This document shows positions 11,469 to 64,000 of a stretch of 64,000 nt of DNA, one piece after another; position 1 is the first letter of the stretch, and each line of letters starts with the position of its first letter. The DNA lies in the IMG/VR virus record IMGVR_UViG_3300032225_002400, positions 11,745 through 75,744 of that record. One strand, given 5' to 3'. The notes beneath the pieces were generated by a model that saw only the letters and a program-made list of their open reading frames with translations, was not told the DNA's origin and ran no database searches. Made by a program: the position numbers and the translations under genes. The DNA comes from a virus (lineage: Duplodnaviria > Caudoviricetes).

Positions 11469-12008
11469 ATGAATATAGACCAACAAATATATAATACAGC
11501 TATTCAGCAAGGATTTAATCCTGTAGCAGCTAAATTAATAGCAGCTCAGGCTAGATTTGAAAGTGCTGACTATACTAGTAATGTTTTTAAAAATAATAAT
11601 AATACTAGTGGTATTAAATTTGTAGGGCAACCTAACGCAGTTCAAGGAACTCTTTCTCCTGAAGGTAACTACTACGCTAAATTCAATACAATTCAAGATT
11701 CAATTAATGACAAAATAGTTAGAATTTATAATATCACAATGGGAGGTATTTCTCCTGACGAACTTAAAAGCTCAAATAATGCAGACGATTTTGCAACTAA
11801 ACTAAAGAAAAGAAATTATTTTGGTAATTATAGCTACGCTACTGCGCAAGGTCAAAAAGAAGCAGCAGCTTACGCTTCTGGTTTAAAATCAAAAGTTTTA
11901 AAAATAAATATTATAGCTTTTGTACAAAAAAATAAAATTGCTATTGGTTTTGGTTTAATTTTACTTGGAAGCGGTTTATGGTATTACTTCAAAAATAAAA
12001 AGAAATAA
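11469..12008 (+). CDS. GH73-like glucosaminidase/muramidase with C-terminal TM anchor
   Basis: IAAQARFES, NNNTSGIK, YAKFNTIQDS; C-terminal IAIGFGLILLGSGLWYYFKNKKK. Confidence 0.75.
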   Translation: MNIDQQIYNTAIQQGFNPVAAKLIAAQARFESADYTSNVFKNNNNTSGIKFVGQPNAVQGTLSPEGNYYAKFNTIQDSINDKIVRIYNITMGGISPDELKSSNNADDFATKLKKRNYFGNYSYATAQGQKEAAAYASGLKSKVLKINIIAFVQKNKIAIGFGLILLGSGLWYYFKNKKK

Positions 12009-33942: not shown

Positions 33943-36900
33943 ATGGCTCAATTGATAACCCCTCCTATTTGTATACCTGCGAGTATAAACTTTGGGTCTA
34001 CAACAGTTGCTTCAACTTATTCTAATGCACTTTCTCCATGGAATGGTTCATCATTTACATTTAATTGTACATTTTCTGTTTTAATTCAAGAAACAAGTTC
34101 TTACGATACAAATCCAATATTACAATATAATGCCAATAATCTAAGTGTTGGGATGTGGTTTGGACTTCCTAATGGAAATTGCTATAGAATACAATCAATA
34201 ACATCAGTAAACGCACAAGGAACATCCTGTGTATTAGTATTAAAAGATGTTGATTTATACAATTTAGTAGTAGATAATACAGGAAATGGAAACAACTTTC
34301 CTCCTGAAGGTTTTGTTGGGTTATTTTTTACTATAGGTTCAGATGGTCTTCCTGTAATTACACCTACAGAACAAATAAGAAGTCAGATTGGTGATATTAC
34401 CAATTGGCTTAATGATTTACATGATAGATTTAGATTTAGAAACTATATAACTGATTATTTTACATTAAATATTAATGATAATAGTTATACAGGTATTGTA
34501 GAAGGAAACTTTGTTAAAATTAACTCTAGTGGTAGCTTTGTTAAAGTTACAGGAACTACAGAAAATGATTTATTAAGCATCGCAGGTATAGTATCTTCAG
34601 CAGATACACCTGAACAAGGTAATTTAAGAGTTAGACCTTTAGGAAGAGTTGTTAGCAACTTAAATATTTTAGTTGGAAATATTGGAGATGTATTATATTT
34701 TGACCCAAATCAAATTGGTAGTCTTACTTCTACAAAGCCTGCAACAGGCGTTTTTCCTGTTTATATAAAATTAAGCTCGACAAGTGCTATATTAAAGAGT
34801 GGTGGCGTAGGTGCAAGCGGTACAGCAGGTACAGCAGGTTCTAGCGGAACTGCAGGAACAAGCGGAGCAACAGGAACAGCAGGAACTTCAGGTATAAATG
34901 GTGTATCAGGTGGTTTAATATATTGGATGAATCAATCTATTAATACAAGTAGTGCTTTTGGTACACCTACATATAAGCAATTAAGTACTAATCCAACTAT
35001 AACAGGTCAAACAAGTCAAGATTTAACATTAGGAGCAGGAGCTACAGGTACATTTCAAACTTTTGCAACTGATAGCGGTGTTCCGGGTTTAACTTCAATA
35101 CCTGCAGGGAATTGGGCATTTATAGTACACATACAAAATATAAATACAACTAATGGTTGGGATATTTATGTAGAGTTGTATACCTATACAATAGGTGGTA
35201 CTTCAACTTTAGTACTTACAACTAATAGGGTTTTAATTTTAAATAATGTAGATATACAACAAGTTTATGTTGATGGATTTTGGAATGGTGGAGCAATAAA
35301 TTCTACAGATAGATTATATGCTAAAATAATTGGTAAAAATAACGGTACAGGTAGTAAAACTGCTACTTTTTATACAGAAGGAAGTTCATTTTATTCATAC
35401 GCACAAACTACATTTAATGCTCCATCAGGAACAAGTGGTACAAGCGGAGTAAATGGCACATCAGGAACAAGCGGAACAAATGGCACATCAGGAACGAGTG
35501 CTTCTAGCGGAACTTCAGGAACAAATGGAACTAATGGAAGCTCAGGAAGTAGTGGTACTACAGGAACTTCAGGTTCTAGTGGTAGCTCAGGTTCATCAGG
35601 CACTTCGGCAACAAGTGGAACAAGCGGAAGTTCTGGGTCTAGTGGTAGTTCAGGAACTTCAGGTATTTCGGGTAGTTCTGGGACTAGCGGAAATTCGGGG
35701 TCTAGTGGAACCACAGGGACTAGTGGGACATCAGGAAGCTCTGGTATTACACCTTCAGTAAGTGGGGCTAGTGGTCAAATAGCTTACTTTAATGGTACTT
35801 CATCTATTACAAGTGATGCTACCTTTACTTATTCTCCTACTTCTCAACTATTAGTTAATAATAGTGTTACGGCTGCATCAGCAATAGCAAGAGGAACTAA
35901 TCTTACTCCTACTCTTGTAGCAGCAGCTAATGGTGATGTATTAGTAGGATTAGATATTAACCCTACGTTTACCAATGGTGCTTTTACAGGGGTATCAAAC
36001 TATGGAGCAAGAATACAAAAGACTGCATTATTTAATGATACTTGGGCAAATACGCAAGCTATTTTTGGTAGTAGTGGTCAAGGCGGTAAAATAGCCTTTG
36101 CTAGAGGTCAAGACGGTTTTGCAGGTGCTACAATTGGATTTACAAACGCAGGCAGTTCAACCAACTTTGCAATAACAAATGTTTCTGGTGGTTTACTTGA
36201 TATAACGCAGAATGCTGGAACATCTACATCACTAAGTGCTACGAATGCAAATGGCTTCGTATTAATAAGAGCAACAGGTGCTTCAGGCTACTTGCAATTT
36301 CAAACGGCAGGTACCGTAAATGCTCAAGTATTCTCCACAGGTAACTGGCTTTTACAACAAGGAGGTACTTTTACAGATGCAGGATATAAATTAGATGTAG
36401 CAGGAACAACTCGTTTAAACGGATTACAAACCTTTGTAGGAACTACTGCAAGTGATGGAGGACAATTAGGAGCTGAACTTTTATCATCTTCAGGTTGGAC
36501 AAGTACAGGTTGGACAGGCTCTTATCCTTCGTTTACGCATACTACAGGTAATACTACAAACTTAACAAATACGTTGGCTGCGGTTGTAGGTAATAACTAT
36601 GCATTTACTTATACGATTACAACAAGAACGGCAGGTACAATTACCTTTTCTTTTGGTGGATTAACTTTTTCAGGAGCATCTTCTTCAGGTGTCGCTTATG
36701 GAAAAGCTACATCAACCGCTTCATTAGTTATTACACCTACTACTGATTTTGATGGAACAGTTGTTATGTCTATTAAGCAAGTTACCGCAGGTTCAGCAAC
36801 AACTACTTTCCAAAATAGTTCAGCAATTGCAAACATAGAAGTAAGAGCAAGTGGAGCTTCTGCAACTAATACATTTATAGGCTTAAATAGTGGTAGATAT

Positions 36901-38874
36901 AACGTAACAGGGGGAACTCAAAATACTTCACTAGGAAGTGGAACTTTAGCATCTATATTAAATGCTATAAGCAATACTGCAATAGGATATAATGCAGGAA
37001 CTTTGATTACAACAGGTGGTAGTAATACTTTAATAGGAGTAAATGCAGGTCAAACTATTACAACAAGTTCTAATAATACATTAATAGGTTCAAACGCAGG
37101 TCAAGCTAATACTACAGGTTCAAATAATACAGCAGTAGGAGTAAGTGCTTTATTTAAAAATACAACAGGTGGTTACAACACAGCAGTAGGATTACTTGCT
37201 TTGTATAATAACACCACAGGTCAATTTAATAATGCAATAGGTGATAGTGCATTATCAGCAAATACAACAGGTCAGCAAAATAATGCTCAAGGTCATTATA
37301 CGATGTATAACAACACTACAGGTTCTAATAATACTGCCTTAGGTAATAATGCCTTGCTTGCAAATACAACAGGTTCAAGTAATGTGGTAATAGGGAACGT
37401 TGCTGCAAATGCTGCTACTGTAGTTGATAATAGTATTATAATAGGAGCAGGTGCACAACCAAATGCTTCTTCTCAAGCCAACCAAATAGTTATAGGATAT
37501 AATATTACAGGCTTAGGTTCTAACACAACAATAATAGGTAATAGTTCAACGACTACTGCTGCTATTTATGGTAACTTACTTTTAGGAACAACAACAGATT
37601 CAGGATATAAATTAGATGTAACAGGTACAGGTAGATTTACAGGAAATACAACAGTAAATGGTTTGGCAATAGCTGCTACTCCTTCTGCAAATAAACTAAT
37701 TGCTTATGGTTCAACTAATATTGGTTTACCTCAATCTAGTGGTTCTACTTTTACAACAGGTATAGCAAGGTTATATGATTCTACAAATGTTACAATAGAC
37801 TTTGGTACTAATGGTGGTGTTTCTCCATATCCTGCTTGGATTCAAGTTAGAGATGTAACAAATATGGCAACAAACTATCCATTATTATTGCAACCTAATG
37901 GTGGTAATGTAGGTATTGGTACAAGTAGTCCTAGTACTACTTTAGATGTAAATGGTGCAACTAAGATTACTGGACCGGGAAATACTTTAACATTAGCAAA
38001 ATCAAATAATTATCCTGCATTAGCTTGGCAAGGTTCAACATATACTAATTTAATTGAATCAGGTGATGGATATATGGCATTTACGCAAAGTGGTGCTGAA
38101 AGAATGCGTATTACAAGTGCAGGTGATGTAGTAGTAGGTGGAACTTCAGCAGTTAGTTCTGCGGCAGGCAGAGGAAATATTACAATAAATGGTTCTTCAT
38201 CTGCATTTTTAGGATATAGCGTTGCAGGTTCAAGAGTAGGATATTTATTTCACGATGGAGGTACATTCACATTAAATAATGATGTAGCTGGTACTATTGC
38301 ATTTAATAATAATGGTGCTGAAAGAATGAGAATAACCTCAGCAGGTAATGTAGGTATTGGTACAAGTAGTCCTGCTTATACATTAGAAGTCGCAGGTACT
38401 TTTAAAGTAGGTGGTAGTGCATATTTTACAGGTTCAGTTTATAATTATGTAGGAGATTCTAGATTTTTTGCTCAAGGAGGAGGTAGTAATTATTTATATT
38501 CAGGTACTGCAAATATTACATTTGTTAACCAAGCTGATACTGCAACTTTAGCTACTATTAATGGTACAACAGGTGTATATACTCCATTATCGGATATTAA
38601 TAAAAAGAAAGATTTTGAAGCATCTACAATAGGATTAAATGAAATTTTACAATTAAAACCTACATTATATAGATTTAAATCAGAAGATGAAATTTCTATT
38701 AAGCAATTAGGATTTATTGCTCAAGAAGTTAAAGATTTTATTCCTCAAGCATACGAAGAAAGTGGCCAAGAAGATAAAAGGTTCATAGGATTAAACTATA
38801 ATCCAATTGTTGCTGCGTTAGTAAAAGCAGTTCAAGAATTATCAGCACAAGTAGAAGAACTAAAAAATAAATAA
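33943..38874 (+). CDS. long receptor-binding fibre/spike with collagen-like repeats, NTxxG repeats and C-terminal peptidase S74 chaperone
   Basis: GTS triplets at about 34801-34890 and 35422-35750; NTAVG..AL..NTTG repeats at about 36865-37560; SDINKKKD..LKP..Y..GFIAQEV..Y..IV..LVKAVQEL. Confidence 0.9.
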   Translation: MAQLITPPICIPASINFGSTTVASTYSNALSPWNGSSFTFNCTFSVLIQETSSYDTNPILQYNANNLSVGMWFGLPNGNCYRIQSITSVNAQGTSCVLVLKDVDLYNLVVDNTGNGNNFPPEGFVGLFFTIGSDGLPVITPTEQIRSQIGDITNWLNDLHDRFRFRNYITDYFTLNINDNSYTGIVEGNFVKINSSGSFVKVTGTTENDLLSIAGIVSSADTPEQGNLRVRPLGRVVSNLNILVGNIGDVLYFDPNQIGSLTSTKPATGVFPVYIKLSSTSAILKSGGVGASGTAGTAGSSGTAGTSGATGTAGTSGINGVSGGLIYWMNQSINTSSAFGTPTYKQLSTNPTITGQTSQDLTLGAGATGTFQTFATDSGVPGLTSIPAGNWAFIVHIQNINTTNGWDIYVELYTYTIGGTSTLVLTTNRVLILNNVDIQQVYVDGFWNGGAINSTDRLYAKIIGKNNGTGSKTATFYTEGSSFYSYAQTTFNAPSGTSGTSGVNGTSGTSGTNGTSGTSASSGTSGTNGTNGSSGSSGTTGTSGSSGSSGSSGTSATSGTSGSSGSSGSSGTSGISGSSGTSGNSGSSGTTGTSGTSGSSGITPSVSGASGQIAYFNGTSSITSDATFTYSPTSQLLVNNSVTAASAIARGTNLTPTLVAAANGDVLVGLDINPTFTNGAFTGVSNYGARIQKTALFNDTWANTQAIFGSSGQGGKIAFARGQDGFAGATIGFTNAGSSTNFAITNVSGGLLDITQNAGTSTSLSATNANGFVLIRATGASGYLQFQTAGTVNAQVFSTGNWLLQQGGTFTDAGYKLDVAGTTRLNGLQTFVGTTASDGGQLGAELLSSSGWTSTGWTGSYPSFTHTTGNTTNLTNTLAAVVGNNYAFTYTITTRTAGTITFSFGGLTFSGASSSGVAYGKATSTASLVITPTTDFDGTVVMSIKQVTAGSATTTFQNSSAIANIEVRASGASATNTFIGLNSGRYNVTGGTQNTSLGSGTLASILNAISNTAIGYNAGTLITTGGSNTLIGVNAGQTITTSSNNTLIGSNAGQANTTGSNNTAVGVSALFKNTTGGYNTAVGLLALYNNTTGQFNNAIGDSALSANTTGQQNNAQGHYTMYNNTTGSNNTALGNNALLANTTGSSNVVIGNVAANAATVVDNSIIIGAGAQPNASSQANQIVIGYNITGLGSNTTIIGNSSTTTAAIYGNLLLGTTTDSGYKLDVTGTGRFTGNTTVNGLAIAATPSANKLIAYGSTNIGLPQSSGSTFTTGIARLYDSTNVTIDFGTNGGVSPYPAWIQVRDVTNMATNYPLLLQPNGGNVGIGTSSPSTTLDVNGATKITGPGNTLTLAKSNNYPALAWQGSTYTNLIESGDGYMAFTQSGAERMRITSAGDVVVGGTSAVSSAAGRGNITINGSSSAFLGYSVAGSRVGYLFHDGGTFTLNNDVAGTIAFNNNGAERMRITSAGNVGIGTSSPAYTLEVAGTFKVGGSAYFTGSVYNYVGDSRFFAQGGGSNYLYSGTANITFVNQADTATLATINGTTGVYTPLSDINKKKDFEASTIGLNEILQLKPTLYRFKSEDEISIKQLGFIAQEVKDFIPQAYEESGQEDKRFIGLNYNPIVAALVKAVQELSAQVEELKNK
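37903..38373 (+). repeat. exact 30-bp direct repeat inside fibre gene
   Basis: GGTAATGTAGGTATTGGTACAAGTAGTCCT at 37903-37932 and 38344-38373 (GNVGIGTSSP). Confidence 0.9.
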
Positions 38875-40488: not shown

Positions 40489-40515
40489 AGGTAGGGCTAA
40501 AATCCTACCTTTTTT
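40489..40515 (+). terminator. intrinsic terminator at convergence point
   Basis: AGGTAGG-gctaaaat-CCTACCT followed by T-run. Confidence 0.8.
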
Positions 40516-41573
40516 ATTTTATCTAATACAATGCCAAGGGTAATACTTTTATGGCATTCAAATTGTCTTGGCGTATCTTCATGCTCAGGACACCAATTCC
40601 AAGAGCCTTTATTGAAGCGAAATGCAGGATTATGCCAACAACCATGACAAACATCCTCTTTTACTATCCTAATACAATTACTTTGAAATTCATGGTTTTT
40701 TGATGTAAAGTTGGAAATCATATACCCTTTCTTGCCAAGTGCCCAATTTAGCCAACTAATGCCACTAGAAAGGCCTATATACCCATCTGCATGGTGTAGT
40801 ATGTTCATCACATTTTGCAAGCATTTGTCTTCAGGTGTAATAATATTATCAAAATGAGTGCTTTGTTTAGATACTTCAACCACTTTATAGCCCATATTGA
40901 TTAGCTCTTCAATTAGCTCTTGCCAATAATACCAATGCTTTAGTTGAGATGTAGATATGGTCGAAATAGCGATATATTTAGTTTCATAAGGCCTCTCTAT
41001 TGGCTTAAAATCAATTATTGGTAATGTTTCTACAAAAGGTAGGTTTAAGATATTAGTAGCTGTTTTTTGCAAAGGTATGGTAGATGGTAAAACAGGTTCT
41101 TTCATCTTATCATAAAACCAACCTAAATCAAACATAGCATGTATATTGTTAACTACAGAACCTCTAGCCACAAAAGTTAAATCAGAATACATATTTTCAA
41201 ACAAATAATTATGAAAAGTAGAAACATGCACTTTACAATTATAATGTGTACTAAACTCTCTACAATATGGAATCCATGCGATAGTATCTCCTAAACTTGA
41301 GCTTTCAAAATTTATAAATACATTTTTTCCTTCTATTTCATTTAATAAGTTAATCTGTTTAATAGTTCTTCCTTCATACTTTATCAATATACCTATATCT
41401 GAAAAGTACTTTCTATCTAATTTTGCCCAATGTTTTAAACCAAGTTTTACCTCATAAATAATACTATTGTCTTTTTTATCAATAAAAACAACATCGTATT
41501 CTCTATTTTTGCCTCCATCATCTACTATTTCAAAGTAAAGGCCTTGTACATGAGTTAACTTATATTCAATCAT
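40497..41573 (-). CDS. Aah/TibC-like (GT9-related) heptosyltransferase
   Basis: FESSSLGDTIAWIPY..C, STSQLKHW, IGLSSGISWLNWALG, C.GCW..C. Confidence 0.7.
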   Translation of the reverse strand: MIEYKLTHVQGLYFEIVDDGGKNREYDVVFIDKKDNSIIYEVKLGLKHWAKLDRKYFSDIGILIKYEGRTIKQINLLNEIEGKNVFINFESSSLGDTIAWIPYCREFSTHYNCKVHVSTFHNYLFENMYSDLTFVARGSVVNNIHAMFDLGWFYDKMKEPVLPSTIPLQKTATNILNLPFVETLPIIDFKPIERPYETKYIAISTISTSQLKHWYYWQELIEELINMGYKVVEVSKQSTHFDNIITPEDKCLQNVMNILHHADGYIGLSSGISWLNWALGKKGYMISNFTSKNHEFQSNCIRIVKEDVCHGCWHNPAFRFNKGSWNWCPEHEDTPRQFECHKSITLGIVLDKIKKVGF

Positions 41574-41577
41574 AATA

Positions 41578-42597
41578 CTACAAATTATTATATATTTCTA
41601 TGTATTTATTCCTAATTGTTTGACTATCAAAATTTTGGAATTGTTTTACTGCATTATACTTCTTCTCTAAATTTTTACAAACATTTAACCAATCATAAGA
41701 TTCTCTTTTTATTGACATTTCTACAACTAATATGTCATATTTGCTAGATACAAAATTTATACCTTTAATAACTTCTTCGGTATTTAATTCATTCATTACA
41801 TACATCCCTTCAATTTTATCGGTTCCTTTATAAGTACCAACTATTGGTATACAACAGCTTGCAGCTTCTAATAAGGTTAAATTAGGATGACCAAACTCCA
41901 AATTAGATGGGTGTAAGAATATAGTATGGTCTTGAAATATCTTTAACTTTTCTGCTTCAGTAGGATTTGTGTCAATAATAGTCAACTTATCATAGTCTAA
42001 TAAGTCTTTATGAATCTCAAAAAACTTGGTATTGGCATCTGCTCCAACTATAGTGATAGGTAAGTTTAATGATTTAGCAGCTTCAATTCCATATCTAAAT
42101 CCTTTTCTGTCTGCTGCATAATCACCTGCTACTCCGTTATTTGCACACATTAACAATTTATGGTTGCTATAACCAAAATTAGGTATGTAGTAGCTAGTAT
42201 CTACTCCATGAGATAAATAAAATAGCTTGTAGGTATCATCGAAATAATCTACTACATATTCTGCAGGAGCTAAAGAAAACATTGATTTCTTCATAGCCTC
42301 TAATTGTTCTCTATAATTACCACTATTTTTACCAAAATGGTAGCTATGATGGTCATGAGTTGAATAAACATACTCAATACCTCTTTTAGAAGCTTCTAAA
42401 CATAAATTAGCAACATGAATATGTACTATATCATATTTATCAACGTCTACTGAATCTAACCATGTTAAATCTACTTCATGACCTAATTTTCTTAGGTTTT
42501 TAGTATATTCATCCATAATTAGCTCAACAGCTCCCCATCCTCTTTCTCCTGTAGGAAGTATTGGTATACTACTACTTATAACTTGTGCTATTCTCAT
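41578..42597 (-). CDS. GT4 glycosyltransferase
   Basis: IPILPTG..GWGAVE, HGVDT, RKGF, HPS.LEFGHPNLTLLEAASC. Confidence 0.85.
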   Translation of the reverse strand: MRIAQVISSSIPILPTGERGWGAVELIMDEYTKNLRKLGHEVDLTWLDSVDVDKYDIVHIHVANLCLEASKRGIEYVYSTHDHHSYHFGKNSGNYREQLEAMKKSMFSLAPAEYVVDYFDDTYKLFYLSHGVDTSYYIPNFGYSNHKLLMCANNGVAGDYAADRKGFRYGIEAAKSLNLPITIVGADANTKFFEIHKDLLDYDKLTIIDTNPTEAEKLKIFQDHTIFLHPSNLEFGHPNLTLLEAASCCIPIVGTYKGTDKIEGMYVMNELNTEEVIKGINFVSSKYDILVVEMSIKRESYDWLNVCKNLEKKYNAVKQFQNFDSQTIRNKYIEIYNNL

Positions 42598-45299
42598 ATA
42601 AATTTTTTTTCTTGTTTATCAATTAACGAAAATCCTTCTGCTTGGGTAGTTAATCTATTATGAACTATTCCAAATTTGTATGGGCTACCATAAAAAATAC
42701 GGTTAAAAAAAATATCTGACGCATCCCACTTTTCTGTTCTAAGCTTTTCCAAAAGCCACTTTTTAACACTTTTAGGAAACGCAATACATTGAAGCCCAAT
42801 TATATGGTCTGTAACAAATAATAAATCTTGGTTAGGTATGGCTTCTCTAACATGAGATTGTAACCATCCATGCTCTAAAGTTTTTACATCTCCAAAAGAC
42901 ATATAACCAATTTTATTATCTTCTATTATTTGGTAAGAACTTTCTACTTTATTTACAAATTCCTGCATAGGCACTTCTATTATACAATCTCCTTCACATA
43001 CTACCAAAAAGTCAATACTATCATCAAATTCACTCATTATCCCATTTTTGAAGGATTCAAAGCATCCAAAATGAGAGGGTGTAAGGGCTGTTCCCAATTC
43101 CTGAACTTGCTGCTCATCGAAGAGTTCCATAGAAACACAATTGGGTCTTTGACAGTTGTATTTAGGTGGTAAGTCTGCGTAAGGGGTATTTGTGTGTATG
43201 ATATATTCCCATCCGTAGTTTGCCACATGCTTGAGTGATTCTCTACTTTTTTGTTCTCTTTCATCATTTATAGTTGTTTGTAAGTGAATTAATCTAATTT
43301 TTGGTTTCCTAGTTTTAATCTTATAATGTCCTGTATGCTGAAATTTATCAATCGTTTTATTATTAAGAACATACTTTTCATTTTTATATATTCTATCTCC
43401 ATCATAAAAGTCAAGCTCTACTTCAATTTCAAGGCCTTTATATTCAAATTCTTTTTTAAATTCTGTTGTTTTATCAATTTGCCATTTGTATATAAAAAAA
43501 TCTTGCCCTGATTCACGCATAGTTATATTAACCTTTCTATTATCTACATTATAAGTATAGAAATAAAACATATAATTGTTAGGCCTATTTACAATAGGTA
43601 TTATTGAGTAATATTCACTATTAGAAGCTACTCCAAGTCCACTATGTTTTAGTAAAGTTTCTTCTTTATTATGCTCAATCATATAATCTTTTTCTAAACC
43701 TCTTAACTTTTTAACTAAATAATCTTCAAGAAAGTTTTGAGCACCAATATTTTCGCAAATGTTATTGTACTCTTCAGTAGTTCTAACATCATCAAAAGTG
43801 TTTAAAAAAAAGTCCACTTCAAAAGCCATACCATTTGTCTGAATACCTTTACCAAAAGGTGTGTTTAAACTACCTAAATAGGCTTTATATAAATATGGAT
43901 TTGTTTTATCTCCAATATCTAATGCTTTTTCAATTACAGGTATATCTCTAGCATCTAAAACAACATCATAAGTAGTATAAAAGAACGCTTCATATCCCAA
44001 TGATTTTGCGGCCTTTGCGCCATTAAATAAATTAGTCAAAACAGTTAATGACTGATTACTATTCTTCAGGCCATTAATATTAATTTCAGCATGAAAATCA
44101 TTTGTATATCTATAAAATCTAGTATAGTAAGAATGATGAGTTAGTGGGTTATGTTTATCATATATGTAATAGTCTACCATTTTTTGAATATCTTCATCAA
44201 CAGGATAGTGAGATAACAGCATAATCTTTCTACCTAATGGCTTTAAGCTATTAATAGTGTCTTTTGTTAATTGTACTCTACTTTCTAAATTAGGCCAAGT
44301 ACCTACAATTATTAGCTCTCTTTTATTGTTAGTTGCTTTTGCTTGAGTTAATTGTAAAACCTTTTCAGCATCTTCAGAAAGATTTCCTGTTAAATAATGA
44401 AAGTCTTCGTACTCATTCCATCTATTCAAATAGACATCTAAGTTGTAGATAAGTTTGGGTAATTGTTTATACTCAGCAGCTTCTTTTATGACAATAGGGT
44501 TCAATTCCTTATTTCCTCTGTCTCCTTTAGATGGGAAGAAGAAAAGGTCAGCAGCTTTAATAAAGTCTTCTGTATCGCCTCTTTCACCCCAAATAACGCA
44601 GTTTTCAGGCTTTTTATCCATTAATGGTTTCCAATAGCTTTCAAAATTACCTGCTTGATTGCCTAAGAAGTGAAATTTAATTTTGTAATATTTGAGCTTT
44701 TCTGCCATTTCAAATCCATATTTTTGGTTCTTTCTAGGGGTAAATAAACCAATTATTACTGCATGTTTGTACTCATGCTCAAGACCTAGTTTCTCTCTTG
44801 CTATTCTTTTATTTGAAGTTTTTGCATCTATAGGGTATTCAATGATTTCTTGAGGTATATCCAAATGGTCATATTTCATAATATTGTATGGGCTAACAAA
44901 TACAAACTTGTCAGGCATCCATTTTTTGTTTTTTGGATTAAAACTGCTATCATGAGTTGATTCTACTATTTTCCAAGTTCTTGTTTCAGAATATAAAAAA
45001 CTTGACATTTCATCATTCATAAACATTTCGGGGAACTCTTCCATACTGATAACATCAGGTTTGAAATCATCAATAATAGACTTCATTTCATCAAGCTTAT
45101 TATGATTTAAAGAATGAAAATTATTTTGTCCAACTAGATTAATAATTCTATTTCTTTGTACAACAAAAGACCAAGCAAGAAAAGAATGTTCAATGACTTT
45201 AATATCAAAATCATTTTTGATTAATTCTACTTTTTTAACTGAACATTGTGGAGCTCCGCCTGTTGATAAGTGTGGAGTAATAATTAATAATTTCTTCAT
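42594..45299 (-). CDS. multidomain glycosyltransferase (N-terminal GT4 plus two further GT-like domains)
   Basis: PHLSTGGAPQ, GLFTPRKNQ, DLFFFPS..ELNPIVIKEA; C-terminal HFGCFESF..VCEGDC (GT25-like). Confidence 0.75.
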   Translation of the reverse strand: MKKLLIITPHLSTGGAPQCSVKKVELIKNDFDIKVIEHSFLAWSFVVQRNRIINLVGQNNFHSLNHNKLDEMKSIIDDFKPDVISMEEFPEMFMNDEMSSFLYSETRTWKIVESTHDSSFNPKNKKWMPDKFVFVSPYNIMKYDHLDIPQEIIEYPIDAKTSNKRIAREKLGLEHEYKHAVIIGLFTPRKNQKYGFEMAEKLKYYKIKFHFLGNQAGNFESYWKPLMDKKPENCVIWGERGDTEDFIKAADLFFFPSKGDRGNKELNPIVIKEAAEYKQLPKLIYNLDVYLNRWNEYEDFHYLTGNLSEDAEKVLQLTQAKATNNKRELIIVGTWPNLESRVQLTKDTINSLKPLGRKIMLLSHYPVDEDIQKMVDYYIYDKHNPLTHHSYYTRFYRYTNDFHAEININGLKNSNQSLTVLTNLFNGAKAAKSLGYEAFFYTTYDVVLDARDIPVIEKALDIGDKTNPYLYKAYLGSLNTPFGKGIQTNGMAFEVDFFLNTFDDVRTTEEYNNICENIGAQNFLEDYLVKKLRGLEKDYMIEHNKEETLLKHSGLGVASNSEYYSIIPIVNRPNNYMFYFYTYNVDNRKVNITMRESGQDFFIYKWQIDKTTEFKKEFEYKGLEIEVELDFYDGDRIYKNEKYVLNNKTIDKFQHTGHYKIKTRKPKIRLIHLQTTINDEREQKSRESLKHVANYGWEYIIHTNTPYADLPPKYNCQRPNCVSMELFDEQQVQELGTALTPSHFGCFESFKNGIMSEFDDSIDFLVVCEGDCIIEVPMQEFVNKVESSYQIIEDNKIGYMSFGDVKTLEHGWLQSHVREAIPNQDLLFVTDHIIGLQCIAFPKSVKKWLLEKLRTEKWDASDIFFNRIFYGSPYKFGIVHNRLTTQAEGFSLIDKQEKKFI

Positions 45300-46258
45300 A
45301 GTTCTTTTTTAATTACAGTAATAACTTGCTCTACAGATGGATGACATTCGTAGGTTTCTTTTTTTTCTAAGCACCCAATCAATGGTTGTACAGAATCTAT
45401 TGTAGGCCAATATTCAAGAGCATATTTCATATTAGAAGAACAATGTAATTGACAGCCTCCTTTAATGTATGTATGTTTCCATCCTTGTTGTCCATGTCTA
45501 TAAGGTGTTCTAAATTCAGGATTAATTGCAGAACCTAGCTCAAATATATGTGTCTTTGTTGTACCTGATAAATGTAGAATACCACTATCCATAGTGATAA
45601 CAGCTTCGGCATTATTGATTATGTGCCAAGTCTGAGATATGCTAGTTTTATTCATTAGGTTAATTACATCACCATCCATTTGATGAACAGGTTTTTGTAC
45701 ACTAAAGAAGCCTTTTTCAGAACTATCTTTTCCAACCGCTACTACATTATATCCTAATTTATTTAATTCATCAACTAATTTTAACCAATTATCTTGTGAC
45801 CATGTTCTATTAGGCCAACTATTTACTGGATGTATTACTACATATCTCTTACTACCTGATGTACTTTTATCACTAAGTCCTTGTATACAAGCATCTTCTT
45901 CAGTAGGTATGTAAAAACAATCCATCTCATCTTTATTAAGCATAAAACCTAAATGAATAGCATGAAATTGCCTAATATCAATCATATTATGCTTCATTTC
46001 TATACCTCTTTCATTTTTTTCACCTACTAGATAAAAAGAGTTATGCATAATATAATTTTTGTTAAAATATTCTTTATCAATAGATGAAGCTTTATAGCTT
46101 TTTTCTACAAAAGGGTTCATTTTAAACAATTCAGGCAAATTGGAGATAATTGTTATTTTTTTTTGATAAGCTTCGCTTATCTTTTTAATGGTAGGAGTAG
46201 CACATATTAAGTCTCCTAAACCATTACAGTTAGATAAATCAAGACAAATATTATGCAT
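45296..46258 (-). CDS. GT9-family glycosyltransferase
   Basis: GLGDLICATP, VIHP..WPNRTW, NLMNKTS, ITMDSGILHL. Confidence 0.85.
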   Translation of the reverse strand: MHNICLDLSNCNGLGDLICATPTIKKISEAYQKKITIISNLPELFKMNPFVEKSYKASSIDKEYFNKNYIMHNSFYLVGEKNERGIEMKHNMIDIRQFHAIHLGFMLNKDEMDCFYIPTEEDACIQGLSDKSTSGSKRYVVIHPVNSWPNRTWSQDNWLKLVDELNKLGYNVVAVGKDSSEKGFFSVQKPVHQMDGDVINLMNKTSISQTWHIINNAEAVITMDSGILHLSGTTKTHIFELGSAINPEFRTPYRHGQQGWKHTYIKGGCQLHCSSNMKYALEYWPTIDSVQPLIGCLEKKETYECHPSVEQVITVIKKEL

Positions 46259-54518: not shown

Positions 54519-55226
54519 ATGAAACTACCTATTGAATATGTAGATATTATAAAGAAATACATACTTTTCAAAAATGATTGTGGTGTTACAGATATGACAC
54601 GCAGAGGGGGTATTTACGAACATTATATTTTCGACTACATTAGAGAAAAGTTAAATGCACAAGGCACTACAATTATTGATGTAGGTGCTAATTTTGGTTT
54701 CCATACATTAGAGTTTGCAGATTTAGTAGGAGATGAAGGCAAAGTTTATTCATTTGAGCCGCAAAGATTGGTTTATTATCAATTATGTGGTAATGTTATT
54801 TTGAATGGTCATTCTAACATATATCCTCATAATTATGCTTTGAGTGATGAAAAGACCACATTAAAAATGGAAAATCTTCAATATTATTCAGATGAGGCAA
54901 TAAACATAGGTAATGCTCATTTAGATGCTTGTACTCATTTAGCTTATAATATGGTGGATGTAAATACTTTAGATTCATTCAATATTGATAATGTTAGTGT
55001 TTTAAAGATAGATGTGCAAGGATATGAGCCAAAAGTTTTAGATGGAGCAAAAGAAACAATTTTAAAAAATAAACCTGTAATATTTATTGAAGTAGAAGCA
55101 CCTCAATTAAGTATTTATGGGTGGAATGAAAATGACATATTTAGTCGTATAGAAGCATTAGGGTATACTTATAAAAAAGTATTAGATGCTGAACATTTGG
55201 TTGATTATGTTGCAATACCAAAATAA
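54519..55226 (+). CDS. FkbM-family methyltransferase
   Basis: IDVGANFG, SFEPQ, LKIDVQGYE..VLDGA. Confidence 0.9.
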   Translation: MKLPIEYVDIIKKYILFKNDCGVTDMTRRGGIYEHYIFDYIREKLNAQGTTIIDVGANFGFHTLEFADLVGDEGKVYSFEPQRLVYYQLCGNVILNGHSNIYPHNYALSDEKTTLKMENLQYYSDEAINIGNAHLDACTHLAYNMVDVNTLDSFNIDNVSVLKIDVQGYEPKVLDGAKETILKNKPVIFIEVEAPQLSIYGWNENDIFSRIEALGYTYKKVLDAEHLVDYVAIPK

Positions 55227-55228
55227 CC

Positions 55229-55879
55229 ATGATATTAGATTACTTTGAAGGAGCTTTCTACTTGAATTTAGATAAGCGTACAGAAAGAAAAGAAGCTTTT
55301 AAGAAAAGAAGCTCAGAAATTGGAATACAAGCCGAAAGGTTTTCCGCTACTCAATTAGGTGAAGGTGATGTACCAAACCCATTGAGAAATAAAGATTGGC
55401 ATATAAAAATATCATGCACTTATTCTCATTTTGAAATGATTAAAGAAGCTAAAAGAAGAGGATGGAAGAATTGTTTAATATTTGAAGATGATTGCATATT
55501 TGAACCAAATTTTATTGAAAAAATGAAAGTTTGTGTAGAAGAGTTAAAACAAATAGAATGGGATATGTTCTATATGGGTGGAGAGCCTAATGCTGAATGT
55601 TATTCTATTTCTGAAAACTTGGCAAAATGTACTACAGGTCTTTATGGGACACATGCTTATGCAATCAATGAATGTTTTTACGATAAAATTTTAAGCATAC
55701 CCTATACTTCAGGTGTTATTGATACTTTATATTTATTTTATGATAGAAACAATAAGAACTATTTAATGTCAAAAGACTTATTAGTAATACAAGATGAAGA
55801 CTTTGTAAGTGATTTATGGAATGGTAAAATAAAAAGAACAGAACAATATCAAGAAGCCTATAAAAAATGGATAAAATGA
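55229..55879 (+). CDS. GT25-family glycosyltransferase
   Basis: YLNLDKRTER, SC..SH, LIFEDD, THAY. Confidence 0.85.
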   Translation: MILDYFEGAFYLNLDKRTERKEAFKKRSSEIGIQAERFSATQLGEGDVPNPLRNKDWHIKISCTYSHFEMIKEAKRRGWKNCLIFEDDCIFEPNFIEKMKVCVEELKQIEWDMFYMGGEPNAECYSISENLAKCTTGLYGTHAYAINECFYDKILSIPYTSGVIDTLYLFYDRNNKNYLMSKDLLVIQDEDFVSDLWNGKIKRTEQYQEAYKKWIK

Positions 55880-56697
55880 AAAAATTAAGCTTTGTATGTA
55901 CATCATACCGCAGATTTACATGTGTAGAAAGAATTGTTGCTCAATTTCATGCACAAACATACCCAAACAAGGAATTAATCATTTTTAATACAGATGAGGA
56001 GTACCCTTATAGTTTGGGATTTGAGGATAGCTCTATAATAATTGTAAATAATGGAATAAACTACCAAACAGGAACTCCTTATGAAAATAGAGGACAGATA
56101 TGTAGAGATGCTGTAACACATGCTACTGGAGATTATTTCATGTTAGCAGATGATGATGATATTTATTTGCCTTGGCACATGCAACAAGCTGTAGATGGTA
56201 TTGAAGCAAATAGAAAAGATGCTTGGAAACCTGAACAAAGCTTTTTTGCTACTCCTAATAAGGTTGAAATGTGTATGAATACACTTGAAGCTTCAGTTAT
56301 AGTAAAAATGGATAGAATAAGAGAAATAGGGTTTAGAAGTGATATAACAGGGTATGAAGGTTTAAGTTGGTATACTCAATTAAGAGATGAAAAGCACTTA
56401 GATGAGCACAATAGGTACTATGTACCTTCTTATTGCTTCAATTGGTCAGACCCACATGAAATAGCTGGTCATAAACAAAGCGGTGCTATAGGAAGTCCAA
56501 ATAACTTTGAAAACCATAAAGAAGCATCAAAAGATTTTGCTAAAAGACCATTAGAGAAACTTTCTGAAGAAAAAGTAAGGGAAACCTACAAACCATATTA
56601 TCATTTTTTAAGACAACATGTAGAAGATTTCCCTTTAGACTTGGTTAGTAAATACATACCTATTCAGGTATTTCAGGTAGAGAATTTATTGTATTAA
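55876..56697 (+). CDS. GT2-family glycosyltransferase
   Basis: SFVCTSY.R, QTYPNKELII, DYFMLADDDD; ATGA coupling suggests start 55876. Confidence 0.8.
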   Translation: MKKLSFVCTSYRRFTCVERIVAQFHAQTYPNKELIIFNTDEEYPYSLGFEDSSIIIVNNGINYQTGTPYENRGQICRDAVTHATGDYFMLADDDDIYLPWHMQQAVDGIEANRKDAWKPEQSFFATPNKVEMCMNTLEASVIVKMDRIREIGFRSDITGYEGLSWYTQLRDEKHLDEHNRYYVPSYCFNWSDPHEIAGHKQSGAIGSPNNFENHKEASKDFAKRPLEKLSEEKVRETYKPYYHFLRQHVEDFPLDLVSKYIPIQVFQVENLLY

Positions 56698-57610
56698 CTA
56701 CATTAGATTGTTTATTAGATGATATTTTTTTAGAATCAACAATTTTAATATTGTTATCTTCATCTAAACTTAAAAATGCTCCACCTTCTAGTTGATTGTC
56801 CATTTCAACTGCCTTTTTGCCATAAAAATCTTTTGGCAACATTTTAGATAATTGTATTAATGTAGTTTTTTTGACCATCCATAAGTTAGGGTCTTTTCTA
56901 TCATTAAAGTATAAATCATTATCATATCTTGATAAAGCTTTTATTTTCAATATATCAGACTTTGATAATACAGTAAATTGATATTCTCCATTCTTTAATT
57001 TAGCTACTGCATATACAAACTTTAAAGTTGAAGCATTTCTTTCTACATTGAAATTAGGCTTATGAATTATATTAGGTTCAAGACCATAAATAGGCTCAAA
57101 TTCATCTCCTTCAAAAACACATTCAGTGTGTATTTTAGTGATTTCTCCTGACCTTAATAAAATATTAACTAATCCTTTATAACCAATTAGCGGAGTCACG
57201 GTTAATCGAGAATCTATTCTACGAGGTATTAAATAGAACTCACCTAACATATCTGATGGAATTAAACCAATTTCAGCTCCAGCAAGTATTGAAGCAAACA
57301 TAGAGCTTGGATTCTCAGTAAATGCTTGAACTAGTTTTTCATTCTTTTTAAGCTCAGATATTACTATTTGAACAAATTGAGCAGGTTCAATGTTATGCTT
57401 TTTAAGTAAATTAGGAAGCACAGTTTCCTTATATGATTCTATATAAGATTGAAACTTTTGAATTGGAGTTAATTGCTTTTGAACTTGTTTAGGTGTTTCA
57501 ATTGCAATTTCTGATTCTTTTTTTACTTCATCTGGTTTTAACTCAGCAATCAAATCTTCATGCTGTGGAATTTCAAGCTGTACTAGCTCTTTTTTTGTGG
57601 TTTCTTTCAT
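56660..57610 (-). CDS. recT: RecT-family single-strand annealing protein
   Basis: S...S.L.GA.IGL.P...GEFYLIP..IGYKGL...LRSG..V.EGDEF..M.KKT. Confidence 0.9.
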   Translation of the reverse strand: MKETTKKELVQLEIPQHEDLIAELKPDEVKKESEIAIETPKQVQKQLTPIQKFQSYIESYKETVLPNLLKKHNIEPAQFVQIVISELKKNEKLVQAFTENPSSMFASILAGAEIGLIPSDMLGEFYLIPRRIDSRLTVTPLIGYKGLVNILLRSGEITKIHTECVFEGDEFEPIYGLEPNIIHKPNFNVERNASTLKFVYAVAKLKNGEYQFTVLSKSDILKIKALSRYDNDLYFNDRKDPNLWMVKKTTLIQLSKMLPKDFYGKKAVEMDNQLEGGAFLSLDEDNNIKIVDSKKISSNKQSNVVNTINSLPEIPE

Positions 57611-58350: not shown

Positions 58351-59151
58351 TTAATAGTGAATATTTTCAATAACAGGGACAGTTGCTTTTTTATCACAGT
58401 CATCTTTAAATGAACATTCTAAGCAACGAATATAGTTTGGTCTAGCTTCTAATTTGTCAGGATTTTTATAGTGATGCTCTATATAACTTTTTATTTTAGG
58501 AATAACAATATTTTCATGTAAGTTAATATGTTCTTCTTGAATATTAGTTTTTATAATTTTAGCTTTGTTTGGGTCTTTGGAAGAGAATATAAAAAAGTAA
58601 AAAGGTATATCTTCAATTCCATGTATATTCTTTACTAAATATTTGTAATGAATAGGTTGAAGTAAAGTTTTTGGTTTATTTACTAAACTTTCAGTATGCC
58701 AACCATATTCACTCCATTTATCATCAATAAGCCCTGAGTATTTTAAATCAATAATACATTGTTTACCATTCCAATTAGCTCGAATGTCTGATATACCACT
58801 ACATCCATCATGCGACATATATTCACCTACTTGTAATATTTCAATATTATGGTCTTGAATTATTTTATTAAAAAGTTTTACTGCTTGAATAGCTCTTTGA
58901 TAATCTATCTGAAGAGTTTCTTTTGCAGTTCCTTTCCATACCATTTCTGGTTGTGGAATTTCATCTCCAGGTCTTACATACTTAGTACATAAATACTCAA
59001 AGTAAATACCTAATTTGGCAGCAGGGCCAGAAGTAGTAGGAATCTTTTCAAAATATTGTTTTCTGATTTTTAAGCCACATTCTTTTACATTTTCATCATA
59101 ATAGTCAATGTAAGATTTTAGAAGCGATTGTGAGACATTAGGTTTTTGCAT
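58351..59151 (-). CDS. PD-(D/E)xK exonuclease (RecE/Cas4-like)
   Basis: SQSLL, G..FE, ISDI, IIDLK, Q...Y, C-terminal CLECSF.DDC; near recT. Confidence 0.75.
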   Translation of the reverse strand: MQKPNVSQSLLKSYIDYYDENVKECGLKIRKQYFEKIPTTSGPAAKLGIYFEYLCTKYVRPGDEIPQPEMVWKGTAKETLQIDYQRAIQAVKLFNKIIQDHNIEILQVGEYMSHDGCSGISDIRANWNGKQCIIDLKYSGLIDDKWSEYGWHTESLVNKPKTLLQPIHYKYLVKNIHGIEDIPFYFFIFSSKDPNKAKIIKTNIQEEHINLHENIVIPKIKSYIEHHYKNPDKLEARPNYIRCLECSFKDDCDKKATVPVIENIHY

Positions 59152-59303
59152 TTTTTTATGGTTTTTTTGATTGTTCTAATTGTATTAAAAATTACTACCC
59201 ATACACCACCTGTTAAATATACAATAATAACAAATAAAGGTATTGCTACTAAGGTAAATATAAATATTAAAGTTATAATAATAGGCTTAGTTAATTCAAT
59301 CAT
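59118..59303 (-). CDS. small membrane protein
   Basis: Long hydrophobic stretch; 3' end overlaps next gene. Confidence 0.4.
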   Translation of the reverse strand: MIELTKPIIITLIFIFTLVAIPLFVIIVYLTGGVWVVIFNTIRTIKKTIKKCKNLMSHNRF

Positions 59304-59601
59304 TTGAAAAATAATCTTTTTTTATTTCTTTTAAGTTTTTAGCTTTATCTATTACTTTCATTGCATCTTCAATTGTTTCATATTCAACAATAATAGCTTC
59401 ATCTTTTAATATTTCTTCATTTTTGAACTTATGCTTTTCACAATATAAATTATCTCCTGTAGTTAAAAATATATTTTTTTTATAATCAAAAGCATTAGTT
59501 ACTCTCATCAAAGAGCAACTTTTATATTCTGAATAATAAAACCTACAACTACTACATTTTCGTATCATTGGTAGGCTTTTTTGATTTAGATAAAATTCCA
59601 T
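59296..59601 (-). CDS. small Cys-containing protein
   Basis: CSSC..C..YCEKH. Confidence 0.55.
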   Translation of the reverse strand: MEFYLNQKSLPMIRKCSSCRFYYSEYKSCSLMRVTNAFDYKKNIFLTTGDNLYCEKHKFKNEEILKDEAIIVEYETIEDAMKVIDKAKNLKEIKKDYFSND

Positions 59602-59610
59602 TTTTTTGTT

Positions 59611-60063
59611 TTAAAATAAACTAATTTTTGGATAGTCTATTGATGTTTGTTCTATTTTATACACGTCTTTATAGAAAGAAATTACTAATTTATTCAAATT
59701 ATTCAAATAATCTACCATTTCATTAACCATTGTTGTTCTTGGTTTTAAAATAAAAGTTCTAGTTTTTTCGTCAAAATCTTTTGAAACAAAAGAATTAGAT
59801 TTATATACAGTTAAAAGTTTTTCAGTATACTTTTGAATTTCATCTATTAAATCTTTATATTGCTTTCTATTATATTCTAATTCTTTTATTGTTTTAGAAT
59901 GTTGTTTAACTAATTCTTCGCTATTCATTAAAAAAACTTGGTAAGAACTTTCTACCAATGCTTCAGAAAGTTTTCTTTTAGTAGATTCTGTAAGCCCTGG
60001 TATTTCTTTTTCAAATATAAATAAAAAGTTACTAAATATTTTTTCTTTTAAGTTGTTTTTCAT
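59611..60063 (-). CDS. hypothetical helical protein
   Basis: 150-aa ORF. Confidence 0.55.
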   Translation of the reverse strand: MKNNLKEKIFSNFLFIFEKEIPGLTESTKRKLSEALVESSYQVFLMNSEELVKQHSKTIKELEYNRKQYKDLIDEIQKYTEKLLTVYKSNSFVSKDFDEKTRTFILKPRTTMVNEMVDYLNNLNKLVISFYKDVYKIEQTSIDYPKISLF

Positions 60064-60116: not shown

Positions 60117-60512
60117 CTAAGAGCAGTCTAGGTTTGTACCATTCTGCTCTTTTTTATTTATTTGATTTAATAGGTCTTCTCCCACTTGTTCTAAATCTCT
60201 GCCATTTCTATATCTTCTTACTATGTCAATCATTTTGTTAATACATCCAACTTCCGCTTCTCTATAAGTTTCATAACGACCTATTGTTAATGATATTATA
60301 TTTCTATCAAGTTGTCGAGCAACACATCTTATATTTATTGTACAAACATTTTCTATATCTATAAAATAAGTTAATCTAAAAACCTCCCTAAACCACATAG
60401 ATGCATCATAAATGCCTATTACAGAAGGTAACTCCCCTGTACCTAAACTCCAATCGCAATAACCCAATTTAATTAATTGTTTAAATTCTTTAGTAGGTAA
60501 GCTAGTTATCAT
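60117..60512 (-). CDS. hypothetical phage protein
   Basis: 131-aa ORF; WFRE..Y.TY.EAE pattern. Confidence 0.55.
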   Translation of the reverse strand: MITSLPTKEFKQLIKLGYCDWSLGTGELPSVIGIYDASMWFREVFRLTYFIDIENVCTINIRCVARQLDRNIISLTIGRYETYREAEVGCINKMIDIVRRYRNGRDLEQVGEDLLNQINKKEQNGTNLDCS

Positions 60513-60517
60513 ATATT

Positions 60518-61261
60518 TTAATTTATTTCCTTTTCTTCTTCGTTTAAAATTGGTTTCTCAGGTTCTATAAGTTGTTTCCATTCCATATTAACTGAGTCTA
60601 AATATACTTGAACTAAGTCTCTATTTTTTGGAGTATCTTTATAATATATACAATCTGTTTTATAACATATAAAGTCATCAGCAAGCATAGTTGCTAAAAT
60701 ATTCATGTGTTCATAACAAATATATCTAATATTATTATATACTTTATGATACACTTGATTGTATTTAAAGACTTTAGTTTTTTCACTTAATACTCCATCA
60801 ATAATAATTTGATATTCTTTACTAGAGCTTAAATTAGCAAGAGCAGCTAAACGAATTGACTTATCTTTAATTTGTAAACCATTCTCATAAGTTTTAGGTT
60901 TTATAATTCCTTCAAGATATGCTATTCTCCAATAAGCATGGTCTAAATCTGTAGCAGTAACTTTTCCACGAAATTTTTTATTTTTCTCATTCCAATAATT
61001 TACAGGAAGTTGTTTTTTTGCAATAATTTTTTTATCAATAACATAGTTTTTTACATCATTCAATACCGAACGAAATACCCACATTCCAGCCTGTATCTTT
61101 TTTAATGGAGAAGGAAATAAAAACTTTCTATCTTGCCATATTATCTCATCAGAGTATGAGCCTTTTCTATAATATGCAATACCTTTTTTATTTTTAAGCT
61201 TATCAAATACAAGCTTTTTTTGTTCATCTCTCAGAACTGTAAAATTGTTACTAGAAGACAT
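60518..61261 (-). CDS. minimal family-B DNA polymerase-like palm domain protein
   Basis: Motif A-like ATDLDHAYW (60929-60949), motif B-like RLAALANL, motif C-like YKTDCIYY (60641-60664); no exonuclease domain. Confidence 0.6.
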   Translation of the reverse strand: MSSSNNFTVLRDEQKKLVFDKLKNKKGIAYYRKGSYSDEIIWQDRKFLFPSPLKKIQAGMWVFRSVLNDVKNYVIDKKIIAKKQLPVNYWNEKNKKFRGKVTATDLDHAYWRIAYLEGIIKPKTYENGLQIKDKSIRLAALANLSSSKEYQIIIDGVLSEKTKVFKYNQVYHKVYNNIRYICYEHMNILATMLADDFICYKTDCIYYKDTPKNRDLVQVYLDSVNMEWKQLIEPEKPILNEEEKEIN

Positions 61262-61281
61262 TTTATGGTTATTTTATGGTT
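61261..61281 (-). promoter_or_regulatory. tandem AACCATAAAA leader motif
   Basis: TTTTATGGTT at 61261-61270 and 61272-61281; same motif abuts starts at 19971, 28292, 52800, 59151, 62959. Confidence 0.6.
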
Positions 61282-62162
61282 TATTTTTTTAACTTTTTAT
61301 AAGCGTTTATTTCTGTTTTTTGTTTATCAAATTGAGCTTTAGTTATAACACCTTTTTTTAGTAAACTTTTTAATGAGTTAATCGCTACTCTAATTGCAGT
61401 GTTTATTTCTTTTTTTTGTTCTGCAGGTTTTTTTGGTTTATTTTGTATTGCTTTTCTAATTCTTTTACGTTTCTCTTTTTGTAAAGTTTTAAACTTATCA
61501 GCTAAATAATCTTTAATTTCTTCTACTTTCTTTTTTTCTTTTTTTGGTAACTCATAATCAATTTGCTCATCATCAGATACTGGTTCATTTTGAATGTATA
61601 AAATATATTCAACATAGTAATTATCAGGGTCTCCATTATTCTTTTTTCTAGGCTTAAGTTTTACAATACCTGAAAAGTAAGGGTTATCACCAGAAGGTCT
61701 ATTTTTAGCATCTTCTCTAATTTTTTCTATAATCTTTTTTACACCATTTCCGTAGTAACTATAATTTCTAGTGTTAAATATTTTTGTTTTACCATATCCA
61801 TTAGCATCTATTTTTATATCTAAACAATCAGGAAGAACAGTTTTAATATGATTATCAATTTCATAATATTCAACAAAAGATAAATAAGCTTCAGATAAAT
61901 ATAAAGGGTTACAAATCTCTCTAGGTGGAAGAGCTTTAACAATCTTGTTTAAATCTTTCTTTATTTCTCGTAAAATAATATTTCCTTGAGCTTTGTATTT
62001 TGGAAATACTTCTTTTGAGATTATTGCTCTTTTTGATTGAATACTAAGCTTTTGTTGATTAGGTAATTTAGAGTTTAAATTTCCCAATTCACGTAGTAAA
62101 TAGTTATAAAGTTTTACACCTTTTAATTCATTTACTTTTACTCTAACTTTTTTTTGAGCCAT
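61281..62162 (-). CDS. basic hypothetical protein upstream of mini-PolB
   Basis: 293 aa, very Lys-rich, especially C-terminus. Confidence 0.6.
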   Translation of the reverse strand: MAQKKVRVKVNELKGVKLYNYLLRELGNLNSKLPNQQKLSIQSKRAIISKEVFPKYKAQGNIILREIKKDLNKIVKALPPREICNPLYLSEAYLSFVEYYEIDNHIKTVLPDCLDIKIDANGYGKTKIFNTRNYSYYGNGVKKIIEKIREDAKNRPSGDNPYFSGIVKLKPRKKNNGDPDNYYVEYILYIQNEPVSDDEQIDYELPKKEKKKVEEIKDYLADKFKTLQKEKRKRIRKAIQNKPKKPAEQKKEINTAIRVAINSLKSLLKKGVITKAQFDKQKTEINAYKKLKK

Positions 62163-63650: not shown

Positions 63651-63956
63651 TTATTTATTGTGTTCGTAAATTGTAAATTGGTCAAACTCATCCATTTCGT
63701 ATGAATATTTGAAATCAATACAATGTAGTGTATCACCATATTGATTAATAATTTCATTAATTGTTTTTTCTAATTGTCTAATACCTTTAAAAGAATAGAA
63801 ATCTGAAAAATCATATTCATGAATTGTATCTTGTTTTACGTATATCATTAATTCATAAGTACAAAAATACTCATCATCATCCCAATATTTTTCTTTAGGT
63901 AAATCTTTTAGAATGTCTTTAACTTTTTGAGTAATTTCAAGTGTTAGTTTTTTCAT
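63651..63956 (-). CDS. hypothetical early protein
   Basis: 101-aa acidic ORF. Confidence 0.6.
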   Translation of the reverse strand: MKKLTLEITQKVKDILKDLPKEKYWDDDEYFCTYELMIYVKQDTIHEYDFSDFYSFKGIRQLEKTINEIINQYGDTLHCIDFKYSYEMDEFDQFTIYEHNK

Positions 63957-64000
63957 GGTTTTTTTAATTTAATGGTTATTTGATAGAGCTAATATACTAA

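Follow-up and report, generated by a model that had tools for sequence, protein, structure and literature searches.

The final 64 kb of a 75,744-nucleotide viral contig (IMG/VR record IMGVR_UViG_3300032225_002400, positions 11,745 to 75,744; hereafter the window, to whose numbering all positions refer unless the contig is named) contain a minus-strand gene (60518-61261) for a 247-residue protein that is predicted to consist of little more than the palm and short fingers of a family B DNA polymerase (PolB). This gene, denoted mini-PolB in the following, is preceded on the same strand by a gene for a basic protein of 293 residues (61281-62162), a candidate terminal protein. Our leading interpretation, which we hold tentatively and with somewhat less than even confidence, is that the 247-residue protein is a PolB-like enzyme of minimal size, which starts DNA synthesis at the ends of the viral genome and uses this partner, in the role of terminal protein, as primer. 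We view the system as a novel variation on protein-primed replication; our literature searches turned up no account of a miniature PolB or of the virus group that carries it.

The open reading frame (ORF) encodes, in this order, the segments TATDLDHAYWRIAY, KSIRLAALANLSS and ICYKTDCIYYKD, which in their wider context read TATDLDHAYW, KSIRLAALANLSS and ICYKTDCIYY. A preliminary description of the window had named them as A-, B- and C-like polymerase motifs, and their conservation in 95 homologs argues against a chance resemblance. The mini-PolB family is large, unnamed and stand-alone; it has 227 matches among 90%-identity clusters and forms 296 clusters when the threshold is 50% identity. Almost every member has a length of 230-270 residues; the few with 300-360 residues carry no known extra domain and no Pfam domain, and no longer or fused forms were found, which by itself is weak evidence. 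When 95 diverse members, which share 23-69% identity with the query, are aligned, D105, K134 and D203 alone show no variation, so that both catalytic-type aspartates are retained throughout, as the preliminary description had supposed. The residue five positions past the first of these (D+5), Y110, is aromatic in all 95 sequences (89 Tyr, 6 Phe). Together with K229 on the strand that follows, these four residues constitute the candidate active site. Further conserved columns are A114 (92 of 95), W111 (90), Y175 (87), R179 (87) and T202 (75), with M186 in the range 87-92; K229 is Lys in 71 sequences and Arg in another 6. Two carboxylates and one lysine as the sole invariant residues suggest the pattern of an active site and not that of a decayed relic.

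The fold was predicted with AlphaFold2 from the family alignment, with a predicted local distance difference test score (pLDDT) of 93.6 and a predicted template modelling score of 0.86. In this model, D105 lies at the end of a strand (residues 101-106) and a helix starts at residue 109, followed by three short helices and a hairpin; K134 caps a helix spanning residues 134-145. A long helix (169-196) then leads into a beta-hairpin (197-201 and 204-208) with D203 in its turn, and the domain is closed by a helix and the strand bearing K229. Residues 1-60 form a separate small beta-alpha-beta-beta-beta module. The modelled domain corresponds to the classical palm of a polymerase with short fingers inserted, and is closest to the family B polymerases, in agreement with the fold that the preliminary description implied. 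A search of viral predicted structures returned as its significant named match a 290-residue protein annotated as 'divergent family B DNA polymerase', followed by homologs of herpesvirus UL8. The helix at the motif B position, likewise anticipated, is present in the model, but its sequence RLAALANL is only moderately conserved and the invariant residue is K134 at the helix N-terminus.

Compared with the features that define PolB, the predicted structure has the right-hand palm with its motif A strand and motif C beta-hairpin. The motif A consensus Dx2SLYPS, which holds a catalytic Asp and a steric-gate Tyr at D+5, is matched by D105 and Y110, an equivalence drawn from spacing and topology and not from superposition; its S, L and P are replaced by H108, A109 and W111. 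In PolB enzymes the steric-gate Tyr lies five residues past the motif A Asp, for example in phi29 (D249/Y254), RB69 (D411/Y416) and KOD (D404/Y409). The reverse transcriptase (RT) of HIV-1 also has an aromatic residue at D+5, and hence this feature alone cannot separate PolB from RT. The motif B consensus Kx3NSxYG of the fingers helix is absent: K134, tentatively the counterpart of the motif B Lys, is followed by xxR-L-A-A-L and no NSxYG. In motif C (Y200-K-T-D203-C-I) the second Asp of YxDTDS alone is present, in 95 of 95 sequences, and the stretch T-D203-C-I resembles T-D-S-I in motif C of phi29. The first motif C Asp is missing from piPolB and PolB2 too, and piPolB is still active (PMC7544198); by this precedent the loss of that residue would be compatible with activity.

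Several other parts of a PolB are missing. The total length of 247 residues leaves no 3'-5' exonuclease domain (ExoI-III), as the preliminary description had stated: the approximately 60-85 residues before the palm comprise the small N-terminal module and a helix. There is no C-terminal thumb, since the protein stops about 15 residues past the last palm strand of the model, and no room for TPR1 and TPR2 insertions, as the 98 residues from D105 to D203 are all modelled as short helices plus one hairpin. The PolB profiles PF00136 and PF03175 do not match. As it lacks motif B, a thumb, an exonuclease domain and any match to the PolB profiles, we file the protein as PolB-like in predicted fold and probable mechanism, and not as a member of PolB.

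The partner gene lies 19 nucleotides upstream of the mini-PolB ORF, and its product contains 67 Lys and Arg residues (isoelectric point 9.8). Across a synteny set of 24 loci, within which the mini-PolB family shows 30-93% identity, a partner homolog is found upstream on the same strand in every locus, directly adjacent in 22 and with one intervening ORF in 2. The lysine-rich neighbour to which the preliminary description had drawn attention is therefore strictly linked to the gene. In several distant loci both genes overlap by 1-4 nucleotides, which suggests coupled translation of the pair. There are 226 partner homologs, an abundance that matches that of the mini-PolB family. An AlphaFold2 model (pLDDT 81.7) consists of an N-terminal alpha/beta domain, a long Lys/Arg-rich helix that acts as a linker, and a C-terminal helical hairpin. 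The latter resembles a SHOCT domain by a sub-threshold Pfam match; otherwise the protein has no meaningful Pfam or PHROG match. Searches of the modelled structure against BFVD, a wide selection of the PDB and the ESM Atlas gave at most generic helical-hairpin matches, and no fold match for the N-terminal domain. In a 38-sequence alignment of the partner, R149 is invariant; T126 (36 of 38), Y182 (36 of 38) and T/S274 (37 of 38) are possible priming residues, judged by their conservation. The idea that the pair is a single PolB split by a frameshift was rejected, as the 24 loci show two ORFs of stable length, each with its own start.

The right end of the window is also the end of the contig, and its last 57 nucleotides (63944-64000) match contig positions 640-696, at the opposite end, perfectly in reverse complement. 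Within them the first gene of each arm begins, with its ATG and four initial codons (MKKL), and beyond this point the two arms differ in sequence; on the right arm this gene is a minus-strand ORF of 101 residues (63651-63956) whose start codon falls within the inverted terminal repeat (ITR). The shared 57 nucleotides look like the inner edge of an ITR of about 0.7 kb that has been collapsed, as would be expected of a de Bruijn assembly. The whole ITR region (contig positions 1-696) carries the upstream region, the ATG and the MKKL codons of the first inward-facing gene of both arms. The relative G003 is a mirror image, with 114 nucleotides that match a site 792-905 nucleotides from the opposite end. 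Assembled ITRs occur in G005 (653 nucleotides, perfect) and G010 (132 nucleotides), both of which are classed as ITR by IMG/VR, and the 146-kb genome G009 has a near-terminal inverted repeat of 48 nucleotides. The inverted terminal repeats for which the preliminary description had proposed to look thus exist in the virus group, and the assemblies indicate linear, ITR-bearing genomes. Once the ITR is restored, the contig probably represents the entire linear genome, about 76.4 kb in length, although CheckV puts its completeness at 66%. In the loci compared, the mini-PolB and partner genes lie 1-25 kb from a contig end, are the very first genes in two contigs, and are read inward in every case where the end nearby is that of the contig.

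The viruses are held together by a further gene, which encodes a 273-residue ATPase (22946-23767, plus strand) with a weak AAA_22 match alone. It is present at 32-91% identity in 10 of 10 related genomes tested, and these ten additional genomes, sharing the ATPase, thus form one virus group. It is an uncultured group of linear, ITR-bearing viruses whose hosts are probably Bacteroidota. The mini-PolB family also occurs in two binned assemblies: a 132-kb contig (L119) in a metagenome-assembled genome of Sediminibacterium, which hints at a Bacteroidota host, and a 22-kb contig (L118) labelled 'Gammaproteobacteria', a label that, given the 93% identity, probably reflects faulty binning. Searches by tblastn with the query, two distant mini-PolB members and the ATPase against 50,697 deposited phage records gave no match, and neither did the mini-PolB query against the PLSDB plasmids.

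No other replicase was found in the contig and the relatives searched, in line with the expectation that the preliminary description had set out for checking. A six-frame profile search of this contig and four relatives gave no match to PF00136, PF03175 or PF00476, and six-frame profiles likewise detected no Prim-Pol (PF09250) and no DnaB helicase (PF03796) in five genomes, three of which are at least 90% complete. When 100 ORFs of the contig were scanned against Pfam and PHROG, the best 25 families listed included no polymerase, primase, helicase or terminase, and the same bulk scans contain no portal, HK97 capsid or tail gene among the matches listed. The sole replication-flavoured match obtained is a 108-residue ORF with a Phg_2220_C domain.

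Given linear genomes with ITRs, no detected polymerase, primase or helicase, and an end-proximal pair of a PolB-like and a basic protein, a reduced protein-priming module is the most economical explanation. We infer polymerase activity, protein priming and the role of the neighbour as terminal protein as follows. The 247-residue protein would be the catalytic subunit of a two-gene module for replication of the genome ends, that is, a right-hand polymerase cut down to palm and short fingers. The two catalytic metals would be bound by D105, which ends the motif A strand, and by D203, which sits in the hairpin turn of motif C; the D+5 residue Y110 would serve as steric gate for the sugar, and K134 would contact the phosphates of the incoming deoxynucleoside triphosphate. 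The basic partner of about 300 residues would supply a hydroxyl residue as primer as well as much of the DNA binding usually provided by a thumb. The pair would start synthesis at the ITR ends, with mini-PolB adding the first nucleotides to its partner. Thereafter, either the whole genome of 57-146 kb would be copied by strand displacement, or a short protein-linked primer would be extended by host polymerases. The short-primer version is favoured because thumb and proofreading are missing.

An alternative that we consider rather doubtful is that mini-PolB is an active small DNA polymerase for recombination-coupled or gap-filling synthesis together with RecT and the exonuclease encoded in the same operon, the partner being a DNA-binding or processivity subunit in place of the thumb and the ends being handled otherwise. 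An exonuclease-like gene and a RecT gene are indeed found downstream in 20 of the 24 loci, the partner, a basic protein, contains long helices together with a SHOCT-like element for oligomerisation, and none of its hydroxyl residues is invariant. On the other hand, the linkage to the partner is much tighter than that to RecT: four loci (L021, L022, L028 and the short L023) keep the pair with no RecT or exonuclease gene nearby. Moreover, some activity must replicate the ends of ITR genomes that lack polymerase, primase and helicase. In a further version, the palm-and-fingers PolB core could, with its partner, form a self-sufficient protein-priming replicase, the sole virus-encoded replication machinery of linear genomes of 57-146 kb and a model for sphaerolipoviruses and other viruses that have terminal proteins and are 'without a canonical polymerase'; we regard this far-reaching version as unlikely.

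A third alternative concerns the class of enzyme. The protein may be a palm-domain nucleotidyltransferase other than a DNA-templated DNA polymerase, be it RT-like, an untemplated protein-primed enzyme of the AbiK/Abi-P2 kind, primase-like or a nucleotide cyclase. Two results qualify the assignment to PolB. A Foldseek search against the PDB returned nothing at an E-value of 1e-3 or better, with reverse transcriptases at the top of the list, and hhalign comparisons with the phi29 polymerase, the PRD1 polymerase and a profile of 33 phi29-type protein-primed PolB sequences gave probabilities below 1%. We also note that the query has no meaningful Pfam or PHROG match, a Pfam scan of the 95 family members gave none either, and a profile search of the family against PDB sequences was empty. 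The link of mini-PolB to PolB is accordingly a structural and topological one, drawn from the model, with sequence homology undetectable. The hallmarks of RT are absent as well, namely the motif C signature YxDD and RT fingers N-terminal to motif A. The broader reading of the preliminary description, a stripped-down polymerase or nucleotidyltransferase, is supported by the predicted fold and the invariant aspartates. An enzyme of this third kind we judge improbable. Finally, a PolB relic that has lost catalysis and persists in a scaffolding role, as do herpesvirus UL8 and the C-terminal half of Pol epsilon, is highly improbable, because inactivated PolBs typically lose catalytic-type residues, and here two Asp and one Lys at such positions are the residues that 95 sequences keep invariant, along with the always aromatic D+5.

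The systems closest to the proposed priming module are the gene pairs gp2/gp3 of phi29 and P1/P8 of PRD1. As the preliminary description had pointed out, the terminal-protein gene adjoins the polymerase gene in both phages, and the arrangement is alike throughout: a linear ITR genome in which a protein of approximately 260-300 residues (266 and 259 residues for the phi29 and PRD1 terminal proteins, respectively) is encoded directly upstream of a polymerase or polymerase-like gene, near the end and facing inward. The polymerases share with mini-PolB, as modelled, the PolB palm, the Asp that ends the motif A strand, the aromatic D+5 residue and the T-D-[CS]-I hairpin. However, they have 553-572 residues compared to 247, serve genomes of 15-20 kb compared to 57-146 kb, and possess the exonuclease domain, TPR1/TPR2, thumb, Kx3NSxYG and first Asp of DTD that mini-PolB lacks, with no detectable sequence homology between them.

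For the favoured working model, the better counterpart is Tap/Tpg of Streptomyces, where Tap and the terminal protein alone make a 13-nucleotide protein-linked primer that is extended by Pol I (PMC4513846, PMC5449611). Here too, a two-gene operon encodes a terminal protein and a dedicated enzyme for the first nucleotides, and another polymerase extends. The likeness is one of function and organisation only, compared by description; Tap/Tpg acts on cellular chromosomes and plasmids and not in viruses, and Tpg has about 185 residues. Among viruses, Sphaerolipoviridae (SH1, HCIV-1) have linear ITR genomes, no canonical DNA polymerase gene and replication that is 'probably protein-primed' (PMC12643093, PMC4958249), but they differ in their archaeal hosts, genome size of about 30 kb and high GC content, and profiles of mini-PolB and its partner gave nothing against all SH1 and HCIV-1 ORFs. 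In contrast to mini-PolB, piPolB and archaeal PolB2, which likewise have one conserved motif C Asp, are full-length PolBs with exonuclease domain and thumb, and herpesvirus UL8 has approximately 750 residues and has lost the catalytic residues, which are the only invariant ones in mini-PolB.

If active, the 247-residue protein would be far smaller than any other PolB-like polymerase known, and would reveal which elements of a family B enzyme can be given up once a partner provides primer and DNA binding. It would also make testable an acknowledged gap, the replication of ITR and terminal-protein viruses that have no canonical polymerase (ICTV profile of Sphaerolipoviridae, PMC12643093). A compact pair of priming polymerase and primer protein could serve in DNA end-labelling or amplification. 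The abundance of the family in metagenomes, together with its absence from the deposited phage genomes, points to a sizeable undescribed group of linear-genome viruses.

Downstream of mini-PolB, the conserved part of the neighbourhood is encoded on the minus strand throughout. It consists of a 150-residue protein (59611-60063; 11 of 24 loci) with no Pfam or PHROG family, a 101-residue Cys-rich protein of the same operon (59296-59601; 14 of 24 loci) whose CxxC...C...CxxH pattern makes it a possible zinc-binding accessory factor of the module, the 266-residue exonuclease-like protein (58351-59151) with a weak match to the exonuclease family phrog_69, and the RecT-family single-strand annealing protein (56660-57610; PF03837, E-value 9e-26; phrog_148, E-value 5e-45). 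A 131-residue ORF directly downstream of the mini-PolB gene (60117-60512, minus strand) is found in this genome only among the 24 loci and is probably a recent insertion.

Elsewhere, contig positions 4301-7417 (locus L002), which lie upstream of the window, encode a DNA alpha-glucosyltransferase, a MazG-like pyrophosphatase, a dCMP deaminase and an enzyme with the thymidylate-synthase fold, a cluster that suggests DNA with glucosylated hydroxymethyl-pyrimidine. Two blocks of glycosyltransferases (40497-46258, minus strand; 54519-56697, plus strand) comprise GT9, GT1/GT4, GT25 and GT2 members and an FkbM methyltransferase, a number of glycosyltransferases unusually high for a 76-kb virus. A protein of 1643 residues (33943-38874, plus strand) with collagen triple-helix repeats and a C-terminal endosialidase chaperone (Peptidase_S74) is probably a fibre or spike. 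A scan of the right arm for sigma-70 promoters gave fewer matches than shuffled sequence and was thus uninformative. Approximately 500 nucleotides of the left arm (contig positions 3199-3702) are found inverted in the right arm of the relative G001 (82880-84379) at 80.7% identity, which suggests gene exchange between the arms.
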